DNA of 64,000 nt, taken from NCBI GenBank assembly GCA_044229475.1, contig JBGASW010000003.1, positions 738,425 to 802,424 on the forward strand, in the 5' to 3' direction. The DNA is from Thermoanaerobaculia bacterium (lineage in GTDB: Bacteria > Acidobacteriota > Thermoanaerobaculia > UBA5066). How positions within the stretch are numbered: position 1 is the first letter of the stretch; each line of letters begins with the position of its first letter. Below the pieces are notes generated by a model. The model did no database searches and was not told the DNA's origin. It saw nothing but the letters and a program-made list of their open reading frames with translations. Position numbers and translations under genes: made by a program. This document shows, one piece after another, positions 26,889 through 35,925 of this stretch.

Positions 26889-27698
26889 ATGAAGATCCCT
26901 CGGCCGAAGATTCTCCGAATGGTCCCGTGCGCGGGCCTCGGCCTCGCGCTTCTTGCAGCGGCTCGCGCGGTGTCCGCGCCGGCGCCGGTCTCGCGCGGGC
27001 TGACGTTCGCGTTGTCGTTCGACGCGAGGGGCCGCGCGATAACTCGTGGACCCTTCGCGCTTCGGGTACCCGGGACGAAGAATTCCTTGAAGGTGGTCTT
27101 CGACTCCGTCGCGCTTTCCGGAGGGATGCTCGACGCCCCGATTCGTCTCCTCAATGAAAGCGGAGCCGACCTGTTCGCCCTACGGATCGACCTCGCGGGC
27201 GTGACCGAGAGCGTGAAGCCGCAGGGACAGGCCGCGTTTTCGCGCGACCAGGACGTCGCGCCTCCGCCTCCGCTCGCCTTCGATGCGATTCGCTCCGGTG
27301 CCGAGACTCCCGGAGGCCTCTTTCGCGGAGGTCCTCTCTCCTTCTCGGAAGACACCGAGGTCGTCGTCGTCCTCGGCGTCGTGTCGGGCGTCGCCGCGGT
27401 GCCTTCGAATCCGAAGGTCGACGTCCGGACGCCCTCGACGAAGGCCTCCGCGTGCCCGGGCGCCGCGCCGGCCTGCCGTGTGGACGCCGAGGGAAACGTC
27501 TGGCGGGTCGAGCCCGCCGAGGGAGAGAAGCCGGGGGGGCTCTCCGAACGCAGCCGCGACGGCGGAGTGATCCGCTCGCTCCGGTTCGAGCGCGGAGACA
27601 GGCCCGTCGACCTCTCGATCGCGCCGGACGGGCGTCTGCTCGTCTTCTTCGACGACGGGTCGAAGGACGGCGCGGTGCGCGCGTTCCGGCCGTTCTGA
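26889..27698 (+). CDS. secreted hypothetical protein
   Basis: ATG 26889. Signal peptide ...GLGLALLAAARAVSA. No family recognised. Confidence 0.55.
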   Translation: MKIPRPKILRMVPCAGLGLALLAAARAVSAPAPVSRGLTFALSFDARGRAITRGPFALRVPGTKNSLKVVFDSVALSGGMLDAPIRLLNESGADLFALRIDLAGVTESVKPQGQAAFSRDQDVAPPPPLAFDAIRSGAETPGGLFRGGPLSFSEDTEVVVVLGVVSGVAAVPSNPKVDVRTPSTKASACPGAAPACRVDAEGNVWRVEPAEGEKPGGLSERSRDGGVIRSLRFERGDRPVDLSIAPDGRLLVFFDDGSKDGAVRAFRPF

Positions 27699-27699
27699 T

Positions 27700-28125
27700 C
27701 TAGCGGCGCTGGACCGTCGTCGGCGCGCCCGACACGGCGACGAGCAGGTTGAAGTCCGCTCGGTAGAGCGGCTGGGCCTTCGCGTCGAACCCCGCGGGGA
27801 TCACGAACATCTCGAACGTGCCGGCCTTCGGATGGTCGACGGTGTACGTCGCCTCCCGGAGCCTCTCGCCGCCGGGCGCGACGAGCGTGAGCGTGAACTG
27901 CCGGGTGCTCCCGCGCAGCGCTCTCTCCGAGTAGTCCGTGAGGACGAGGTCCACCGGATCGCGGCGCTCGAACCCGCGGAACCGGAAGGTCTCGCCGACG
28001 AGCGCCTTGAAGGCGCGGCCGTCGGGAACGTCCGGTCCCGCGCCGAGGAGCGAGGACGGGCCGAGGGCGGCGGCCGCCACGCCGGTCGCGAGGGTCGTGA
28101 GGAACTGCGCGCGCGTCGTCTTCAT
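27700..28125 (-). CDS. small exported protein (Tat-like N-terminus), paralog of 28165-28461
   Basis: ATG 28125 after GGAGG. MKTTRAQFLTTLATGVAAAAL. Core LVGETFRF...FTLTLVAPGGERL...HPKAGTFEMFVIPAG...YRADFN. Possibly the DUF6916-type domain (from memory, unverified). Confidence 0.6.
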   Translation of the reverse strand: MKTTRAQFLTTLATGVAAAALGPSSLLGAGPDVPDGRAFKALVGETFRFRGFERRDPVDLVLTDYSERALRGSTRQFTLTLVAPGGERLREATYTVDHPKAGTFEMFVIPAGFDAKAQPLYRADFNLLVAVSGAPTTVQRR

Positions 28126-28164
28126 GGGGTGCCTCCAGGCGGGTTCTGTGCCACGATCCGATGG

Positions 28165-28461
28165 ATGCTCGGGGAGCTGACGTACTCGAATTTCTTCGAA
28201 AGGGTCGGACAGGAGTTCCGCATCGCGGCGGGTGAGGGCGTCGCCGTCCTCGTTCTGACCGAGGTCACGGATCTCGCACGGCCGGAGAGCCCGTCGCCGC
28301 GCCGCAAGCCGTTTTCGCTGGTCTTCCGCGGTCCCCGGGCGCCCGTTCTCCCGCAGCGCATCTGGCCGCTCGAGCACGCGGCGCTCGGGAGGCTCGAGAT
28401 TTTCCTCGTGCCGATCGGGCCCGACGCGGAAGGCATGCGGTACGAGGCCATCTTCAACTGA
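28165..28461 (+). CDS. small cytoplasmic paralog of 27700-28125
   Basis: High third-position GC. RVGQEFRI...FSLVFRGPRAPVL...HAALGRLEIFLVPIG...YEAIFN aligns motif-for-motif with the neighbour. Confidence 0.6.
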   Translation: MLGELTYSNFFERVGQEFRIAAGEGVAVLVLTEVTDLARPESPSPRRKPFSLVFRGPRAPVLPQRIWPLEHAALGRLEIFLVPIGPDAEGMRYEAIFN

Positions 28462-28948
28462 CACCGGCCCCGACGGCTTCGGGCTTCCACTCCATCAGGA
28501 CGTACATCCCCTGCTCGCCTTTGGGCGCGAACCCGAGCCGCTCGTAGAGGACGCGCGCAGGGTTGAAGATCTCGACGTGGATCGTGACGGGTTTTCCGTC
28601 CCGGGCGGCCTCGGAGAAGAGACCTTGAATGAGCTCGGTGCCCACGCCACGCCCCCTGAAGTCGGGCAGGAGCGCGATGTCGACGAGGCGGATCTCCTTC
28701 GGCCACCGCTGGACGTAGAGGCGGCCGGCGGGAGTGCCGTCCACCTCGACGACGAACCTCTCGGCCTCCGGATACTGCTCGTCCCAGTACGAAGTCTGCG
28801 CGTCGAACTGCTGGCGGACGAAGGCGGCCTTCTGCTCGTCCGTCCACGGAACGGGCGCGAGCTCCTCCGTGCGCGTCGAGCCGTAGATCCGGCAGAGGAG
28901 GTCGCGGTCCTCCGGGCGGATCGGGCGCAGCGCGATCACCTTCGTCAC
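28454..28948 (-). CDS. GNAT-family N-acetyltransferase
   Basis: VDIALLPDFRGRGVGTELI acetyl-CoA motif. 164 aa. Confidence 0.85.
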   Translation of the reverse strand: MTKVIALRPIRPEDRDLLCRIYGSTRTEELAPVPWTDEQKAAFVRQQFDAQTSYWDEQYPEAERFVVEVDGTPAGRLYVQRWPKEIRLVDIALLPDFRGRGVGTELIQGLFSEAARDGKPVTIHVEIFNPARVLYERLGFAPKGEQGMYVLMEWKPEAVGAGVS

Positions 28949-28955
28949 GGCGGCG

Positions 28956-29474
28956 TCAGGTCCGCGGCGGATAGACGCCCTGGAGAGCGATGCAGAAGTT
29001 GAGCGTCAGGTACGGCTGCATGTTGTTGTGCGGCTGGTCGCCGCCCGCGGGGGCGAGCATCTGGCCGTCCATCTGCGTGTTCGGGGTCCCCTGGTAGAGG
29101 GTTCCTCCGGACGAGAGGGCGAGCGACGCCGCGGGAGAAGGCACGTTCGTGTCGGCGAGATCCACGACGTCCGCCCTGAGGTTGTGCGAGTGGGAGGGAA
29201 TCTCGGACTCGAGGAGCGAGACCGTCTCGGAACCGCCCGTCTCGCCGAGATCGTGGAGCGACAGCCCCGGACCCTGGCCGGGGTGCATCGGGGCGTTGCC
29301 CTGCATGTTCGGCAGGGCGAAGTTGCTCTTGCCGTCGCCGCCGTACGTCGTGCCGAGCAGCGAGAAGAGCGCCGTGTTCTGCGAAAGCGGCAGGATCTGA
29401 CCGTCGCAGAACGCCCAGCCCTTCGGGGCGAAGTTGAACGGGAAGATGCGGATCTCGGCGACGAAGGGATCCAT
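28956..29474 (-). CDS. phage tail-collar domain (MdpB/COG4675-like) protein 3
   Basis: PFVAEIRIFPFNFAPKGWAFCDGQILPLSQNTALFSLLGTTYGGDG...IPSHSH...GGDQPHNNMQPYLTLNFCIALQGVYP. GAGGAG RBS. Confidence 0.9.
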   Translation of the reverse strand: MDPFVAEIRIFPFNFAPKGWAFCDGQILPLSQNTALFSLLGTTYGGDGKSNFALPNMQGNAPMHPGQGPGLSLHDLGETGGSETVSLLESEIPSHSHNLRADVVDLADTNVPSPAASLALSSGGTLYQGTPNTQMDGQMLAPAGGDQPHNNMQPYLTLNFCIALQGVYPPRT

Positions 29475-29484
29475 GCGGCTCTCC

Positions 29485-29988
29485 TCAGGTCTGGCTCGGG
29501 AAGATCCCGAACAGGGAAATGATGAAATCGACGCAGAGGTACGGCTGGAAGTTGTTGTGCGGCTGGCTGCCGCCGACGGAGCCGACCGCGTTCGCGCTCA
29601 TCGTTCCGTTCGGCACGTCGTTGATGTAGGGCGTCACGTTGAACGACGCCGCGAGGACGTTGCCGCCCGGCGACGTCTGTCCGCCCGGCGAGGTGGACGC
29701 CAGGACGGGATGCGAATGCGACGGGATCTGGGAGACCGTGAGGGTGACCGTCTCGACGCCCCCCGTCTCGGCGAGAACGAAGCCGTTGCCGAAGTGGAGC
29801 GGCACGCGCCCGCGCAGGTCGGGGAGGGCAAACGTCGACTGCCCGTCGCCGCCGTACGTCGTGCCGATGAGGTTGAAGAGCGTCTCGTACTCGGAGATGG
29901 GCAGGAGCTGGCCTTCGCAGAACATCCAGCCCGCGGGAGCGAAGTTGCCCGCGAAGATCCGGATCTCGCCGACGTAGGGTTGCGCCAT
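29485..29988 (-). CDS. phage tail-collar domain (MdpB-like) protein 2
   Basis: PYVGEIRIFAGNFAPAGWMFCEGQLLPISEYETLFNLIGTTYGGDG...GGSQPHNNFQPYL...FGIFPSQT. Confidence 0.9.
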   Translation of the reverse strand: MAQPYVGEIRIFAGNFAPAGWMFCEGQLLPISEYETLFNLIGTTYGGDGQSTFALPDLRGRVPLHFGNGFVLAETGGVETVTLTVSQIPSHSHPVLASTSPGGQTSPGGNVLAASFNVTPYINDVPNGTMSANAVGSVGGSQPHNNFQPYLCVDFIISLFGIFPSQT

Positions 29989-29998
29989 TGCATGCCTC

Positions 29999-30499
29999 CT
30001 AGGTCTGGCTCGGGAAGATGCCCTGGAGGGCGATCGAGAAGTTCAGGACGAGGAACGGCTGCATGTTGAGGTGCGCCTGCGAACCGCCCACGTTCAGGAG
30101 GCTCGCCGGATTGAGCGCGGTGAGGTTCGTGGGCGGGTGGTAGGCGTTGTTGGCGCCGCCGAGGACGCTGCCGCTCGGGCTCGCCGTCCCGCCCTGGGCC
30201 AGAGAGGAGGCGCCGACCACGTGCGTGTGCGTCGGCAGCTCCGAGATCGTGAGCGTGTGCGCCTGCTCGCCCCCGCGCTCGCCGAGCGTGTGCCCACTCC
30301 CCATGTGGATCGGGACCTGCCCCTGGAGGTTCGGCAGGGCGAAGTTCACGCGCCCGTCGCCGCCGTACGTCGTGCCGAGCAGCGAGAAGAGAGCCTGGTT
30401 CTGGTTGATCGGCAGGAGCTGGCCGTTGCAGAGGGCCCAGCCCTTGGGCGGGAAGCTGAAGCTCATGATCCGGATCTCGGCGAGGAAGGGCTCAGCCAT
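29999..30499 (-). CDS. phage tail-collar domain (MdpB-like) protein 1
   Basis: PFLAEIRIMSFSFPPKGWALCNGQLLPINQNQALFSLLGTTYGGDG...GGSQAHLNMQPFLVLNFSIALQGIFPSQT. AAGGAGG RBS. Confidence 0.9.
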   Translation of the reverse strand: MAEPFLAEIRIMSFSFPPKGWALCNGQLLPINQNQALFSLLGTTYGGDGRVNFALPNLQGQVPIHMGSGHTLGERGGEQAHTLTISELPTHTHVVGASSLAQGGTASPSGSVLGGANNAYHPPTNLTALNPASLLNVGGSQAHLNMQPFLVLNFSIALQGIFPSQT

Positions 30500-30529
30500 T
30501 GAAACCTCCTTGGCTCTGTGACGATGTGC

Positions 30530-33500
30530 TCACGGGCAGCTCCCGGCCCCGCCCGTGAAGCCGCCGCCGGTGGGGACCGTGTTCGACGCGAGTCCCGAGG
30601 CGCCGCCGTTGTTGCCGGACACGAACGCCACGGCGGCCGCGTTGTCGTTGTTCGCGCCGGCGTAGTTCGGCAGGCGGAGCGTGGTCGCCTGGCGCTGCCG
30701 CAGGCGGAAGTCGGCGACGATGCCGGTGGGAGGCACGGCGTCGGCCCCGCTCCCCGTCATCGAGTTCGAGACGATATCGGCGCACACCTGATATGTGTCT
30801 CCGACAACCGTTCCATCGTTCACGTGGATGCCGTTCTTCGGAAGCCCGATCGTGCCCGCCGTGTTGCCCGGCTGCGCGATCGTGTTCCCCGTGATCGTCG
30901 CGTTGAGGGCGCCCGGCATGGCGGACGCGCCGCCTCCCGTCAGAAGCTCGATGCCGAAGACGTTGTACTGGCGGATCTGGTTGTTCGTGATCGTGACCTT
31001 CACCGTGCCCTGGCCGGCGTTCTGCACCTTGATGCCGTCGCCCTCGGCGGAGCCCGTGTTCGCCGCGCCCGAAACGCCGATCGTGTTGTTGTCGAACGTG
31101 CCGGTCACGGTGGCGGAGCCCGTGGACTTGAAGAAGAGGATCGCGTGGCCCACGGCGTCGCGGAGGGTGTTGTTCGAGAAGTTGGACGTAATGTTGCCCG
31201 TGCCGTTGCTTCCGATCGTCACGCCGCCCCCGCCCGTCGCGATGGCGCTGTTGCCGTTCGTGAGCGTGTTGCCCGTGAAGACGAGGTCGTCCGCGCCCGT
31301 CCCGATGTTGTTCAGCTGGAAGAGGTCGCCTGCGGCGCTCTTGAAGAAGCTGTTCTGGACCGTGACGTTCACGACCGCGGCGCCCTGGGATTCGATCGTG
31401 AGCGCGTCGTTCGCCGGGCTCGCGCCGCTCACGTCGAACGTGACGTTCGAGAACGTGATCCGGTTCAGCGTCCCGCTCGTGTTCACGAGCCGGAAGTTGT
31501 TGGAGAAGCCGCCCTGGATGTTGCTGTTCGAGACGGTCGCGGATCCCGTCAGGTTGTCGAAGGAGACCGCCCCGTCGTTGTACGGCGTCGCGCCGTTCGT
31601 CCCGGTCGTCCCGTCGAGGAAGCACGTGTCCATCGTGAACCCGGCGACGCTCGTGCCGCGCAGGCCGTAGTTCGAGTTCGACCGGATCCGCAGGCGTGTC
31701 AGGGAGACGCTCGCGACGTTGTTCAGGACCACGCCCGACCCGACCGGAACGGCCGAGGAGTCGTCGCCTCCGGTCATGTTCTGGATCGTGCCGCCGGAGC
31801 ACGTCGTATCTGCGGGGCCGCAGGCGCCGCCCGCCCCGGTCACGGTGAAGCTGCCGCCCGTGAAGTTGGAGAGGACGATTCCGGCCGTTCCGCCGTTGGC
31901 GCTGACGGACGTGAACGACATCACTCCCGTGTTGCCCGTGCCCTGGATGTCGATCGCCGTCCCGGTCGTCGTCGTGATCGTCCGGGCGGTAACGCTGACG
32001 CCCGTGACGGTCGCGTAGCTCGAGCCGTTGAAGTTCGTGATCGCCCGCGACGTCGTCGTCGCCATGTCGATCCCGCTCACGTTGACGAAGCTCGCGAGCG
32101 TGAGCGTGCCCGACAGAGTCGGCGTGTTCGCGGCGCTGCCCGCCACCGTGAGGATCGGCGAGACGGTGGGGACGTTGAGCGTCGCGCCGGCGCCGACGAG
32201 CCGCTGGCTCGTCTTCATCGCGTAGGCGCCCGTCGTCGAGCCGGAGCCCTTCGCGACGTAGATGAAGTCGCCGCTGCCGGTCGAGGCGGTCCCGACCGCC
32301 GCCATGGTCTTGAGCGGGGTGCTCGACCGGCCGTCGTTCGTGCCGGACGCCGTCGCGTTGTCGACGTACCAGACCATCCCGCTCAGCGTGAACGTCAGGC
32401 TCGCGGTGGCCGTCGTGGGCGTGGGCGTGCCGGCCGTGTTGGAGGAAACCGTGTACGTGCACGTCGCCGACGTGGCGGCGACGTCCGGCGTGAAGATGAA
32501 GCGGCCGACCAGGTCGAACGTCGCGATCGTCCCGCCCGACGAGCAGCTGGCGGCGGAGACCCAGGTGGCGCCGAGCGGCTGCACGCCGTTCAGAAGAGCG
32601 GTCCCGCTCGCGACGGCCGGCGTCGCGGGGGCGCCCGCGACCCCGGTCACATAGACCTGAGTGTTCCCGACGCCCGTGTAGGACTGCGACGGGGCCGTCG
32701 GTGCCACGGTCACCGTCACGCTCTTCGAGCCCGTGCAGCCGCCCGCGTCCGTCGCCGTGATCGTGGCCGAGAACGTGCCGGTCGCCGTGGGCGTGCCCGT
32801 GACGGCGCCGGTCGAGGAGTTGATCGCGACGCCGCCGGGGAGCCCCGTGGCCGACCACGTGATCGTCGAGGTCGTCCCGCTCTGCGAGAAGGTCGCCGTC
32901 GACATCGCCGTGTTGTAGGCGAGGGCCGGGATCGTTCCGCTCACCGTGATCGTCGGGCAGGTGAGGACGAGCGTGTACGTCGCCGACGTCCCGAAGCATC
33001 CGTTCGTGTCCGTCGCCTTGACGACGATCGGGAAAGAGCCCGTCTCGGTCGGCGTGCCGGAGAGGACTCCGGTCGACGGGTTGAGCGTCACACCGGCAGG
33101 CAGCGTGCTCGCGGTCGACCACGTGACCGTCCCGAGGATGCCGCTCGCCGTGAACGTCTGGCTGAACGAGTTGCCCTCCGTCCCGGTGGTGGTCGCGGGG
33201 ATCGTCACGGTGATCGTCTGGCAGTCGATGACGAGCGTGTAGGTCGCGCCCGTGCCCGTGCAGCCGTTCGCGTCCGTTGCCTTGACGACGATCGGGTAGG
33301 TGCCCGCCTGCGACGTCGTGCCCGAGAGCGTGCCGTCCGCCGCGAGCGTAAGGCCCGTCGGCAGCGTGCTCGTCGTCGAGAACGTCGCCGTGCCGCTGCC
33401 TCCGGACTGGGAGAACTGCTGGCTGAAGGCGACTCCGGCCGTTCCGGTCGTCGTCGACGGATTCGTTACGGCGATCGTCGGGCAGGTCGTCACGAGGCTG

Positions 33501-35782
33501 TAGACGGTCTGTCCCGTGCAGCCGTTCGCGTCCGTCGCCGTCACCGTGACGGGGAACGTGCCCGGCTGGGTCGGCGTGCCGGAGAGGACGCCGGCCGCGT
33601 ACGTCATGCCCGGAGGCAGGGCGCCGACCTCGGCGAGCGCGTAGGGCGCAGTGCCGCCCGACGCCGTGAACGTGATGGGACCGTACGGGGAGCCGACCGG
33701 CCCGGCCGCGAGCGACGGGGGCGCGACGGTGATCGTCACGCCGTTGCACGTGATCGTGACGACGTAGTCCTGGCTGCCCGCGCAGCCGCCCGCGTCGGTC
33801 GCCGAGATCGTGATCGGGAACGAGCCCGTCTGCGTGGGCGTGCCCGAGAGCGTGTCCGTCGAGAACGTCATGCCCGAGGGCAGGGCTCCCGCCAGCTGGA
33901 AGGTGTAGGGGCCCGCTCCGCCCGACGCCGAGAAGACAGTGGCCGGGAAGGGCGCGTTCGCCGGGGCGGCCGCGAGGGAGCCCGGCGAGAGCGTGATCGG
34001 CGTGGACGGGCAGGACACGACGAGGAGGTAGTCGCGCGTCGCCGTGCAGCCGTTCGCGTCGGTGGCCGTGACGGTGAACGGGTACGAGCCCGTCAACGCC
34101 GTCGTGCCGGAAAGGACGCCGCCCGACGAGAGCCCGAGGCCCGCGGGGAGCGTGCCGGACGTGACGGCGTACGTCACGGCGCCGATGCCGCCCGACTGCG
34201 TCAGCGTGGCCGTGTACGCGACGCCCGACGTCGCCTGCGGAAGCGCGGCAGGCAGGATGGACCACGTCTGGCAGCCCACGACGAGCGTGTACGTGGCGCC
34301 GATTCCGGCGCAGCCGTTCGCGTCGGTGGCCGTGACGACGATCGGGAACGAGCCGGTCTGCGTCGGCGTGCCGGAGAGGACGCCGTTCGCGGCGAGCGTG
34401 AGGCCGGCCGGGAGCGTCGACGCCGTCGTGAAGGTCACGGTCCCGACGGTGTTCGAGGCCGTGAACGTCTGGCTGAACGGGGTGTTCGCGGTCGCCGTCG
34501 ACGTCGCGGGATTCGACACCGCGATCGTCTGGCAGTTGATCGTGAGGTTGTAGGTCGCTCCGGTCCCCGTGCAGAGGTTGCCGTCCGTGACCTTGACCAC
34601 GATCGGGAACGTGCCTTTCTGCGTGGGCGTGCCCGAGAGAACGCCGTTTGCCGCGAGCGCGAGGCCCGCCGGGAGGGTGCTCACGGTCGAGAACGTCGCC
34701 GAGCCGATCGCGCCGGCCTGCGTGAACGTCTGGCTGAACGCCGCGTTGACCGTGCCTGTCGTCGTCGCCGGATTCGTCACGGTGATCGTCTGGCAGTTGA
34801 TGACGAGGTGGTACGTCGCGCCCGCGCCCGTACAGCCGTTCGCGTCTGTGGCCGTGACGACGATGTCGAAGCCGCCGGCCTGTGTGGGCGTGCCCGAGAG
34901 AACGCCGCTGGCCGCGAGCGTCATCCCGATCGGGAGGGCGCTCCCCGTCGAGAACGTCACCGTCCCGACGCCGCCCGACTGGGTGAAGGTCTGGCTGAAG
35001 GGCGTGTTCGCCGTCCCGGTCGTGACGCCGGGGTTCGTCACGGTGATCGTCTGGCAGGCGATCACGAGCGTGTAAGTGGGCCCGGTGCCCGTGCAGCCGT
35101 TCTGGTCGGTGGCGGTCACGGTGATCGGGAAGGTGCCGGACTGCGTGGGCGTGCCCGAGAGCGTCCCGTTCGCGGCGAGCGTCAGGCCGGCCGGGAGCGG
35201 CGAGGACGTCGTGTAGGTCTTTGCGCCGACTCCGCCCGAGGACGTGAACGTCTGGCTGAACGGGGAGTTCACGGCGCCGGCCGCCGTGGCGGGGTTCGTG
35301 ACGAGGATCGGGCTCGTGCAGGCGAGGACGAAGTAGCCCTCGACGTCGAGGAGATAGTCCGCGCTGCCCGTGGACCCGTTCGCGAGCGCGACCGTTCCGG
35401 ACCCGTCCGACGCGAGCGCGACGAACGCGAAGCCGGCGCGAGTCTTGCGGGCGTTGAAGCCGAGGACCGTCGTCGGCGGCACGGGAGCGTCGCCCGCGAA
35501 CAGCTGGGCGTAGCCCACCGCCGCGGGGTTCACGACGGTGAGGTTGACGACGAGGCCGAGGGCGTTCGCGGGGACGCCGCACGTCCCGGCGATCGTGAAG
35601 ACCCGCACTTCGTTGGCGCCGAGCGCGGGGCCGCCGTTCGGGCCCGCGGGCCCTCGCGTGTCCACGGCCCGGCAGGCCGTGATCGGAACGAACGCCTGGG
35701 CCGCGGGTCCGACGCCGGCCGCGAGCGGATGCGCCAGGGCGAGAAGGGCGGCCGGAAAGAGAGCGAGCCCGCGACGGATCAT
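30530..35782 (-). CDS. 1750-aa secreted protein: N-terminal ~120-aa module, ten Ig-like (He_PIG/dystroglycan-type) repeats, C-terminal parallel beta-helix region
   Basis: GGAGG RBS and signal peptide MIRRGLALFPAALLALAHPLAAG. Repeats have LPAGLTLAANGVLSGTPTQ.G.FPI.VTATDANGC. The beta-helix-like part begins WYVDNATASGTNDGRSSTPLKTM and carries NN/TGN-type coil repeats. Confidence 0.9.
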   Translation of the reverse strand: MIRRGLALFPAALLALAHPLAAGVGPAAQAFVPITACRAVDTRGPAGPNGGPALGANEVRVFTIAGTCGVPANALGLVVNLTVVNPAAVGYAQLFAGDAPVPPTTVLGFNARKTRAGFAFVALASDGSGTVALANGSTGSADYLLDVEGYFVLACTSPILVTNPATAAGAVNSPFSQTFTSSGGVGAKTYTTSSPLPAGLTLAANGTLSGTPTQSGTFPITVTATDQNGCTGTGPTYTLVIACQTITVTNPGVTTGTANTPFSQTFTQSGGVGTVTFSTGSALPIGMTLAASGVLSGTPTQAGGFDIVVTATDANGCTGAGATYHLVINCQTITVTNPATTTGTVNAAFSQTFTQAGAIGSATFSTVSTLPAGLALAANGVLSGTPTQKGTFPIVVKVTDGNLCTGTGATYNLTINCQTIAVSNPATSTATANTPFSQTFTASNTVGTVTFTTASTLPAGLTLAANGVLSGTPTQTGSFPIVVTATDANGCAGIGATYTLVVGCQTWSILPAALPQATSGVAYTATLTQSGGIGAVTYAVTSGTLPAGLGLSSGGVLSGTTALTGSYPFTVTATDANGCTATRDYLLVVSCPSTPITLSPGSLAAAPANAPFPATVFSASGGAGPYTFQLAGALPSGMTFSTDTLSGTPTQTGSFPITISATDAGGCAGSQDYVVTITCNGVTITVAPPSLAAGPVGSPYGPITFTASGGTAPYALAEVGALPPGMTYAAGVLSGTPTQPGTFPVTVTATDANGCTGQTVYSLVTTCPTIAVTNPSTTTGTAGVAFSQQFSQSGGSGTATFSTTSTLPTGLTLAADGTLSGTTSQAGTYPIVVKATDANGCTGTGATYTLVIDCQTITVTIPATTTGTEGNSFSQTFTASGILGTVTWSTASTLPAGVTLNPSTGVLSGTPTETGSFPIVVKATDTNGCFGTSATYTLVLTCPTITVSGTIPALAYNTAMSTATFSQSGTTSTITWSATGLPGGVAINSSTGAVTGTPTATGTFSATITATDAGGCTGSKSVTVTVAPTAPSQSYTGVGNTQVYVTGVAGAPATPAVASGTALLNGVQPLGATWVSAASCSSGGTIATFDLVGRFIFTPDVAATSATCTYTVSSNTAGTPTPTTATASLTFTLSGMVWYVDNATASGTNDGRSSTPLKTMAAVGTASTGSGDFIYVAKGSGSTTGAYAMKTSQRLVGAGATLNVPTVSPILTVAGSAANTPTLSGTLTLASFVNVSGIDMATTTSRAITNFNGSSYATVTGVSVTARTITTTTGTAIDIQGTGNTGVMSFTSVSANGGTAGIVLSNFTGGSFTVTGAGGACGPADTTCSGGTIQNMTGGDDSSAVPVGSGVVLNNVASVSLTRLRIRSNSNYGLRGTSVAGFTMDTCFLDGTTGTNGATPYNDGAVSFDNLTGSATVSNSNIQGGFSNNFRLVNTSGTLNRITFSNVTFDVSGASPANDALTIESQGAAVVNVTVQNSFFKSAAGDLFQLNNIGTGADDLVFTGNTLTNGNSAIATGGGGVTIGSNGTGNITSNFSNNTLRDAVGHAILFFKSTGSATVTGTFDNNTIGVSGAANTGSAEGDGIKVQNAGQGTVKVTITNNQIRQYNVFGIELLTGGGASAMPGALNATITGNTIAQPGNTAGTIGLPKNGIHVNDGTVVGDTYQVCADIVSNSMTGSGADAVPPTGIVADFRLRQRQATTLRLPNYAGANNDNAAAVAFVSGNNGGASGLASNTVPTGGGFTGGAGSCP
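32702..35320 (-). repeat. ten tandem ~261-bp (86-88 aa) coding repeats inside the giant gene
   Basis: Counted directly from the translation (aa 155-1027). Each unit starts with Cys and has a second Cys in an (N/G)(G/L)C motif about 12 residues before its end. Confidence 0.9.
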
Positions 35783-35925
35783 TCGACCTCCGCTGCGCCG
35801 TTCACGCGGCGCGCTGATTCTTTGTACGAGCGCTCGGGTGAGCCCTCTCCGGGGTGTTGCGGCGGCGATCGTATCTCAAGTGGGGAAACCGCGCCGCCCG
35901 GAGCGGGAATGAGAGCCTGACGAAT

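Follow-up and report, generated by a model that had tools for sequence, protein, structure and literature searches.

Introduction

In bacterial genomes, few annotations without an explanation are as common as stand-alone genes for a 'tail fiber protein' or 'microcystin-dependent protein'. Their products carry the Collar domain, which also forms part of gp12, the short tail fibre protein of phage T4; gp12 is a 527-amino-acid (aa) homotrimer with a long, baseplate-anchored shaft and binds the core of lipopolysaccharide (LPS) as an intertwined trimer. Here we describe three consecutive collar genes in a 64,000-nucleotide (nt) stretch from a Thermoanaerobaculia bacterium (assembly GCA_044229475.1, contig JBGASW010000003.1, positions 738,425 to 802,424), which is called the window throughout and is numbered from its first letter. 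The genes lie between one for a giant exoprotein and one for a GNAT N-acetyltransferase, beside two divergent genes of the DUF6916 family. As judged from sequence comparison, the locus exemplifies a cassette that is widespread, horizontally mobile and non-viral. A large subset of the stand-alone collar genes would belong to it, in a fixed set that comprises three ancient collar classes, DUF6916, a dedicated GNAT and, in most cases, a giant exoprotein with Ig-like and beta-helix parts.

Cellular relatives with a name are found in COG4675, namely MdpB/MrpB of Microcystis and RhiB, encoded in rhiABC of Rhizobium leguminosarum. These are stand-alone bacterial collars like those of the window, and their function is not known; close homologs of the window's first collar protein (collar A) are called 'microcystin-dependent protein' by JGI. 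The mrpAB and rhiABC loci are two- or three-gene sets with a single recognised Collar protein each and are under quorum-sensing or light control but, unlike the window, they have not been described with a GNAT, a DUF6916 or a triplet of collar classes. Another Microcystis protein, MrpC, is a microcystin-dependent extracellular glycoprotein that has been implicated in cell-cell contact (PMC3328848).

A triplet of collar genes has been studied in a virus. Virophage DSLV2, of the Aquatic Virophage 1 lineage (J Virol 2025), encodes three consecutive PF07484 proteins of ~19 kDa that co-purify as a 1:1:1 heterotrimer of ~55 kDa (PMC12724248). This heterotrimer forms 16-nm fibres and binds Synechococcus cells, with LPS proposed as the receptor from docking, and AlphaFold 3 favoured it over homotrimers of the same proteins (PMC12724248). 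The window resembles DSLV2 in having three collar genes of similar size in a row and in one direction, with each position forming its own clade or class. However, the virophage proteins have variable heads, are encoded beside capsid genes and make up a virion appendage, whereas the window genes are chromosomal, accompanied by a GNAT, DUF6916 and, usually, a giant, and encode strongly conserved heads whose heterotrimer is predicted here from sequence. The heterotrimer principle is already known from one virophage study, while the cassette itself is new to the literature that we searched, in which we found no publication on the cassette, its collar classes, their linkage to a beta-helix giant, the Tat-type paralog described below, or DUF6916.

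A conserved collar cassette

All three collar proteins are encoded on the minus strand and match the Pfam family Collar (PF07484; cut-off 24 bits): collar A (29999-30499) scores 94.2 bits (E 5e-27), collar B (29485-29988) 103.5 bits (E 6e-30) and collar C (28956-29474) 94.5 bits (E 4e-27), with an additional weak Pfam match of C to Gp10_C. The domain starts at residue 2-7 of proteins that are only 166-172 aa long (A, 166; B, 167; C, 172) and have no N-terminal, baseplate-anchoring shaft; none of the three has a signal peptide. An HxH motif after the collar and a C-terminal strand that completes it are marks of the Collar family and of the gp12 structure, and both are kept in all three classes, as P.H.H and as GGsQpH.NmqPyL..nF.IaLqGiFPs. 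T4 fibre tips hold metal-binding His pairs on the trimer axis; the collar HxH motif resembles these pairs and is a candidate only for the same role. The best matches of collar B in the Protein Data Bank (PDB) were phage tail fibre 8kec and T4 gp12. Although 8kec and the C-terminal domain of gp12 (1ocy, 1pdi, 5iv5) are like the window proteins in Collar sequence and in both motifs, the latter differ from gp12 in being short and shaftless, in falling into three classes and in having no phage context. A PHROGs search returned matches only to the collar domain within larger tail proteins, and a PDB search found no solved structure of a stand-alone MdpB-like protein.

The conservation of the locus was surveyed in one genome per GTDB species. 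Anchoring on DUF6916 gave 69 loci, whose open reading frames (ORFs) were searched with hidden Markov models (HMMs) built from the window proteins. These loci come from Acidobacteriota, Pseudomonadota, Actinomycetota, Chloroflexota, Cyanobacteria, Myxococcota, Deinococcota, Verrucomicrobiota, Planctomycetota, Armatimonadota, Rokubacteria and a metagenome-assembled genome (MAG) labelled Clostridia, and the linkage of three collars, a GNAT and DUF6916 spans at least 10 phyla. A GNAT gene lies within a few kb in 64 of the 69. Exactly three full-length tandem collars are present in 55 of 61 collar clusters, two in four, one in two and more than three in none; the clusters with fewer than three sit where a contig ends or where a long-read assembly is frameshifted. 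Gene order varies (the three collars followed by GNAT and DUF6916; GNAT and DUF6916 followed by the collars; or DUF6916, collars, GNAT), as does orientation, and the flanking genes differ among loci except in the syntenic Thermoanaerobaculia. Apart from the giant, clustering of all neighbourhood ORFs revealed no further conserved family, and no toxin, pore-forming or lysis gene.

Other anchors returned the same gene set. Homologs of collar A led to it in Methylomicrobium sp. RS1, in Casimicrobium and on a JGI contig, a homolog of the giant led to it in Longimicrobium, and a tblastn search of plasmids with DUF6916 found it on pB of Sinorhizobium meliloti LMB1, where the annotation reads 'hypothetical / N-acetyltransferase / tail fiber protein x3 / putative Ig domain-containing protein'. 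An earlier note on this DNA, made from the sequence alone, had taken a lack of such linkage in related genomes as grounds against its reading, but the linkage recurs, in varied orders and among varied flanks.

Within the cassette, the three collars are not interchangeable copies. For 168 collars from 56 triplets, the best match in an all-against-all BLAST was to the same position in other loci in 73-79% of comparisons, and identity was ~48% between paralogs of one locus against a mean of 55% for the same position across loci. Iterated class HMMs found each of the classes A, B and C once in 55 of the 56 triplets, in the order ABC in 50, BAC in four and BCA in one. Spectral clustering, which used no positional information, recovered the same classes for 161 of the 168 proteins. 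Each class has its own conserved residues, and class C carries a GxGxGLS insertion (GQGPGLS in the window). By these comparisons, the classes A, B and C are ancient.

In the subtype with a beta-helix giant, each class is ~80% identical among Acidobacteriota, Gammaproteobacteria and Betaproteobacteria, most of the head region included. For instance, the collars of Methylomicrobium (L097, 9001-10545), and also those of L098 and L099, are ~80% identical to those of the window (28956-30499) despite a GC content of 70% in the latter and ~50% in Methylomicrobium. Furthermore, the Methylomicrobium cassette has a GC content of 56-60% in flanks of 50%. The high identity and the raised GC of the cassette together indicate horizontal transfer across phyla combined with strong purifying selection, which is unusually strong for a protein of the receptor-binding type.

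Two variants of the locus were seen. One Pseudomonadota MAG (L019, 2894-12104) has three collar triplets within 10 kb, with one DUF6916, one GNAT and no ORF of more than 500 aa nearby. In long-read MAGs L009/L017 (10787-15786) and L011 (9958-17147), the collar genes and the giant are split over several frames, through either indel errors in the assembly or real pseudogenisation.

The giant exoprotein

The gene upstream of collar A (30530-35782, minus strand) is an uninterrupted ORF for 1750 aa with a G+C content at third codon positions (GC3) of 0.95. Its product has a Sec-type signal peptide (aa 1-~23), an N-terminal domain (~24-165), ten He_PIG stretches (~165-1030; Pfam, E 6e-107), an Ig-like part (~1031-1130) and a C-terminal module (1131-1750; 30530-32392), and syntenic orthologs share this architecture. 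The last ~620 aa contain PbH1-like coils and end in a conserved ...GxGxxCP. The module begins with MVWYVDN...DGRSSTPLKTM, which we take to be a cap motif of the kind typical for beta-helix N-termini.

The earlier note had expected Pfam to confirm He_PIG, Collar, Acetyltransf and Beta_helix domains. The first three (Collar in all three proteins, and Acetyltransf_1 in the GNAT) were found, but Beta_helix had no Pfam match in the giant, and the beta-helix itself was borne out by modelling: AlphaFold2, with 50 homologs, folded aa 1131-1750 into a right-handed parallel beta-helix (predicted local distance difference test score, pLDDT, 93; predicted template modelling score, pTM, 0.93). A Foldseek search of the PDB with this model gave top matches that were all right-handed beta-helix proteins (E 1e-4 to 2e-2, template modelling score (TM) 0.2-0.37, identity 9-14%), including a tail protein of phage Andhra, PL6 alginate lyases, beta-helix glycosidases, CBA120 TSP1, Fri1 gp49, pertactin and AlgE4. 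Homologs of the module carry PF13229, and a PDB sequence search with the last 720 aa gave no match. On the model, the fold class is clear, namely a right-handed parallel beta-helix of the tailspike / pectate-lyase type. Unlike the fold class, an enzymatic activity is not clear: catalytic residues were not recognised, and the structural matches are too distant for active sites to be transferred. Furthermore, although the last 620 aa share their fold with tailspikes and with beta-helix adhesins and enzymes (CBA120 TSP1, Fri1 gp49, pertactin, PL6, AlgE4), the giant's beta-helix differs from tailspikes in being monomeric in the model and in ending an Ig-repeat stalk rather than sitting on a virion.

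In an iterative jackhmmer search with the last 720 aa, the beta-helix module was found in a giant ORF adjoining the triplet at ~40 of the 69 loci (~60%), mostly in an ORF that ends just upstream of collar A. The Methylomicrobium giant (2671 aa) likewise ends in ...GxCP and is 49% identical across 538 beta-helix residues, while the N-terminal stalks are variable, with He_PIG in the window and Big_9, Cadherin_4/5, Big_2, DUF11 or CARDB elsewhere. At some loci that lack the module, its position may be filled by a different large surface protein: the giant neighbour in S. meliloti, which we had considered as a further carrier of the module, instead consists of seven He_PIG and three Big_9 domains with an autotransporter barrel, and Zooshikella has a 2212-aa DUF4347 protein beside an HlyD/M50 protein. 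Thus, the giant is a frequent but not universal partner of the cassette, and the link to a giant adhesin made in the earlier note holds in the sense that the cassette usually has a giant surface protein of the Ig type beside it.

Another idea was that collars are present wherever a giant with the module is found, but L080 and L081, which are rich in Big_9, have no collars; they were probably matched through their Ig part and not through a beta-helix. The N-terminal domain of the giant (35290-35713) belongs to no Pfam family and occurs in 11 loci only (8 distinct), all labelled Acidobacteriota or Thermoanaerobaculia.

Probable assembly of the three collars

The three collars of the window probably form a 1:1:1 heterotrimer of A, B and C, a prediction that draws on sequence comparison and on analogy. 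It is supported by the retention of one collar of each class per cassette, by natural single-chain fusions of different classes and by the precedent of virophage DSLV2 (PMC12724248). The earlier note had suggested that the three subunits may assemble together, and the suggestion has gained strong, though indirect, support.

The fusions were found among the top matches of the collar profile. Many chains of ~500-560 aa contain three full collar modules, and many of ~335-350 aa contain two, joining classes A-B and B-A; the class joins were assigned by eye from the sequences (for example P0262, A-B; P0264, B-A; P0242, B-A-C). The class-C insertion is found in the last module of P0246, P0248, P0255, P0258 and P0278, and the linkers between modules are short and ordinary, at 3-10 residues. 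In addition, proteins of 1100-2000 aa combine exactly three or six Collar modules with He_PIG, Big_9, Cadherin, DUF11, CARDB, FG-GAP, Calx-beta or Golvesin_C domains. Since the Ig, cadherin and FG-GAP domains are extracellular, these fusions place the three-collar unit in an extracellular context.

The same cassette, with the same extracellular role, might instead produce three separate homotrimers (A3, B3 and C3), stacked or side by side, although we consider this quite unlikely. The adjacent, paralogous T4 genes 10, 11 and 12 give rise to three homotrimers that are assembled on the baseplate. The phage collar proteins solved so far (gp12 and 8kec) are homotrimeric, collar C has its weak match to Gp10_C, and any complex with three obligate components would account equally well for the retention of one member per class. 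However, the joining of different classes by linkers of 3-10 residues suits a single-chain pseudo-trimer better, and the virophage triplet is a heterotrimer whose homotrimer models scored lower (PMC12724248).

Some collar chains follow other patterns. Five very long proteins (P0241, P0273, P0295, P0348 and P0362; 2368-5991 aa) have 6 to 19 collar stretches, with 19 in the 4832 aa of P0241, and three smaller fusions (P0271, P0272 and P0285) have a matrixin-like HExxH motif between collar modules.

Proposed export and function of the cassette

A role of the collars at the cell surface requires an export route, because they have no signal peptides. Tat (twin-arginine translocation) exports folded and oligomeric cargo, including partners that have no signal of their own; its N-terminal signals have the motif S/T-R-R-x-F-L-K with a hydrophobic stretch behind it. 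The two DUF6916 proteins of the window match PF21880 above its cut-off of 27 bits. The short one (98 aa; 28165-28461, plus strand; 113 bits, E 7e-33) has no signal peptide, and AlphaFold2 models it as a six-stranded beta-barrel (pLDDT 89); the long one (141 aa; 27700-28125, minus strand; 59.9 bits, E 3e-16) has an N-terminal signal peptide that begins MKTTRAQFL... and is twin-arginine-like but with a single Arg (TRAQFL). A close ortholog has TRKSFL, and long DUF6916 proteins of other phyla have the canonical Tat motifs SRRSFLE, SRRRFLE, SRRSFV, DRRGFL and RRRSFL. This suggests the Tat-signal DUF6916 as a candidate export route, by hitch-hiking, for a head assembled in the cytoplasm. A fold search with the DUF6916 model gave no significant match in the PDB (best E 0.29, TM <0.5) or in BFVD (best E 0.025, TM <0.52), and the family was not confirmed among 2.9 million IMG/VR viral contigs with the patterns used.

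The GNAT (164 aa; 28454-28948, minus strand) matches Acetyltransf_1 (PF00583) with 51.4 bits against a cut-off of 20.7 (E 2e-13), together with Acetyltransf_3, _7 and _10. Its similarity to RimI, NAT (nourseothricin acetyltransferase), STAT, AAC(3) and ArsN1 is weak, as are its PDB sequence matches, and no NCBIfam equivalog reached its cut-off. Four loci (L062, L067, L069 and L074) have two GNAT genes, which flank the short DUF6916 in the first three; two-GNAT cassettes also have a Tat-type or second DUF6916, in the order GNAT, DUF6916, GNAT, DUF6916 (Tat), three collars, giant. These arrangements hint that the GNAT works as a pair with DUF6916. In Casimicrobium (L098, 10566-11285), a gene between collar C and the GNAT encodes a 239-aa protein that belongs to no Pfam family and carries the canonical Tat signal MDRRSFL.

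We propose that the A, B and C collars co-assemble 1:1:1 in the cytoplasm into a pseudo-threefold, gp12-like head, which would act outside the cell together with the Sec-exported giant, with its Ig-repeat stalk and tailspike-like beta-helix. Head and giant would constitute a device for glycan recognition or adhesion, in effect a 'cellular tail fibre', whose ligand is conserved rather than variable between strains; by analogy with gp12 and the virophage fibre, this ligand is probably a glycan. The GNAT and the beta-barrel DUF6916 would be dedicated factors for modification, assembly or export, and the folded, signal-less head may cross the membrane by hitch-hiking on the Tat-signal DUF6916 paralog. 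Like the heterotrimer, the export route, the ligand, the tasks of GNAT and DUF6916 and any physical contact between head and giant are inferences.

Taken as a whole, a heterotrimeric, gp12-like, glycan-binding head that acts outside the cell with the giant, matured or exported by GNAT and DUF6916, is a tentative model to which we give slightly less than an even chance. Several points weigh against it. The collars, the short DUF6916 and the GNAT are all without signal peptides, the Tat motif is degenerate in the window's own long DUF6916, and a long, Tat-type DUF6916 is found near only about a third of the loci. About 40% of loci have no beta-helix giant, and L019 and L030 lack any large neighbour. 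No close relative of the GNAT is informative, and no homology to a chaperone or adaptor can be claimed for DUF6916, for which no significant structural relative was found. Finally, the survey was anchored mainly on DUF6916, and its counts are not a share of all collar triplets, in a family for which a profile search of 1.84 billion representatives returned 64,747 clusters at 50% identity. A more specific version, in which the head is acetylated by its own GNAT, carried through Tat by a DUF6916 pilot and docked on the beta-helix end of the giant, as a two-part glycan-binding organelle that has spread through at least 10 phyla with its head almost unchanged, is unlikely to be right in every part.

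If the general proposal is true, phage receptor-binding modules have been taken over for a cellular purpose, with a ligand that is conserved rather than variable. The cassette predicts a heterotrimer and suggests a candidate export route, it provides DUF6916 with its first functional context, and its carriers include the genetically tractable Sinorhizobium meliloti, Ensifer adhaerens, Methylomicrobium, Azospirillum and Deinococcus.

The earlier note had also offered a bacteriocin-like reading with the GNAT as modifier or immunity factor, which the survey disfavours. In such an antagonistic module, a lectin-like collar complex for targeting or killing would be released by lysis or in vesicles, and GNAT and DUF6916 would confer immunity. 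However, the cassette has no conserved gene for a toxin, a pore-forming protein or lysis, and collars that are ~80% identical across phyla, head included, are not what is expected of antagonism modules, which usually diversify. Signal-less collars would suit this explanation, as many bacteriocins released by lysis are likewise without signal peptides, and so would a horizontally mobile cassette and the weak likeness of the GNAT to self-resistance acetyltransferases (NAT, STAT, AAC(3), ArsN1); in addition, Solibacter collar paralogs have been reported under positive selection (PMC3174227). Nevertheless, GNAT and DUF6916 are conserved families that do not vary as cognate immunity proteins do, and the Thermoanaerobaculia locus is syntenic and lies between housekeeping genes. 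We regard a bacteriocin-like role as improbable.

To a cytoplasmic system we assign a similarly small probability. Here, collars, GNAT and short DUF6916 would serve, for example, as an anti-phage decoy or sensor, through interference with fibres or baseplates, or as an intracellular lectin or regulator, and adjacency to the giant would reflect co-regulation only. None of these proteins has an export signal, and a GNAT needs acetyl-CoA, which is cytoplasmic. MrpA/B and RhiA are reportedly abundant cellular proteins. A review reports only a prominent, differentially accumulating proteome spot, and COG4675 proteins have been detected in soil metaproteomes. However, no family in PADLOC-DB 2.0 matched any of the six small proteins at E <=0.01, the fusions put three collar modules in chains with extracellular Ig, cadherin and FG-GAP domains, and Tat-signal DUF6916 paralogs and Sec-signal giants recur in the cassette. 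The lack of DUF6916 matches in viral contigs lends no support to a role in defence.

A decayed prophage, tailocin or contractile injection system, with fibre genes left by chance, is very improbable: collar fold and beta-helix are both typical receptor-binding modules of phages, and a few collar-triplet matches lie on contigs called viral by IMG/VR, but these contigs carry bacterial genes beside the triplet, the flanks of the locus hold no phage structural, integrase or tRNA gene, DUF6916 was absent from the viral contigs with the patterns used, and the same gene set is under strong purifying selection in at least 10 phyla.

Locus organization and neighbouring genes

The window agrees with that judgement, which the earlier note had also reached in calling the locus no obvious prophage remnant. 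The locus is flanked by housekeeping genes (CTP synthase, KdsB, Usp, a metallophosphoesterase, an asparaginase-like gene and a DEAD helicase), there is no tRNA anywhere in the 64 kb, and no sheath, tube, baseplate, capsid, terminase, integrase or att site was found in ~8 kb to the left and right of the locus, beyond which the scan of the window was not exhaustive. Phage structural and integrase genes were likewise not seen around the orthologous or analogous loci that were inspected.

The giant, collars A, B and C and the GNAT are encoded by five co-directional minus-strand genes with gaps of 30, 10, 10 and 7 nt, exactly as first noted, and GC3 is 0.90-0.96 across all five in a window with a GC content of ~70%. 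The claim that each has a GGAGG-type ribosome-binding site holds for the giant and the three collar genes, which have GGAGG, AGGAGG or GAGGAG sites upstream, but not for the GNAT. This gene starts with GTG 7 nt past the collar C stop and has no Shine-Dalgarno site, and because of this it is probably translationally coupled to collar C. A scan of the operon for promoters and terminators found nothing above shuffled controls. An 1800-aa ORF on the plus strand (30518-35920) was considered as a gene and rejected as a shadow frame antisense to the giant. Shorter antisense ORFs over the giant, with GC3 >0.9, are shadows too; the giant gene is GC-rich and its product rich in Thr, Gly and Ala.

Directly adjoining the long DUF6916 gene is one for a 269-aa protein (26889-27698, plus strand) with a Sec signal and no Pfam family. 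A Sec-signal protein of 203-269 aa holds the same position in syntenic Thermoanaerobaculia loci, and it may be a lineage-specific component. It was compared with the Tat-signal protein of L098 (Casimicrobium), and the two are not homologous.

The small paralogous pair beyond the GNAT is indeed divergent: both proteins belong to DUF6916, they are 33% identical, and their genes start 39 nt apart, at 28125 on the minus and 28165 on the plus strand. The short DUF6916 gene and the GNAT gene are convergent, and their stops overlap by the 8 nt reported earlier (TCAACTGA, 28454-28461; GNAT stop, 28454-28456), so that their transcripts may overlap in antisense at the 3' ends. The invariant ...FN* end of DUF6916 supplies the GNAT stop on the opposite strand. 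The same overlap of stop codons is found in L032, L045, L053, L063, L071, L076 and L082, spans 10 nt in S. meliloti, and recurs in Acidobacteriota, Actinomycetota, Alpha-, Beta- and Gammaproteobacteria and Deinococcota.

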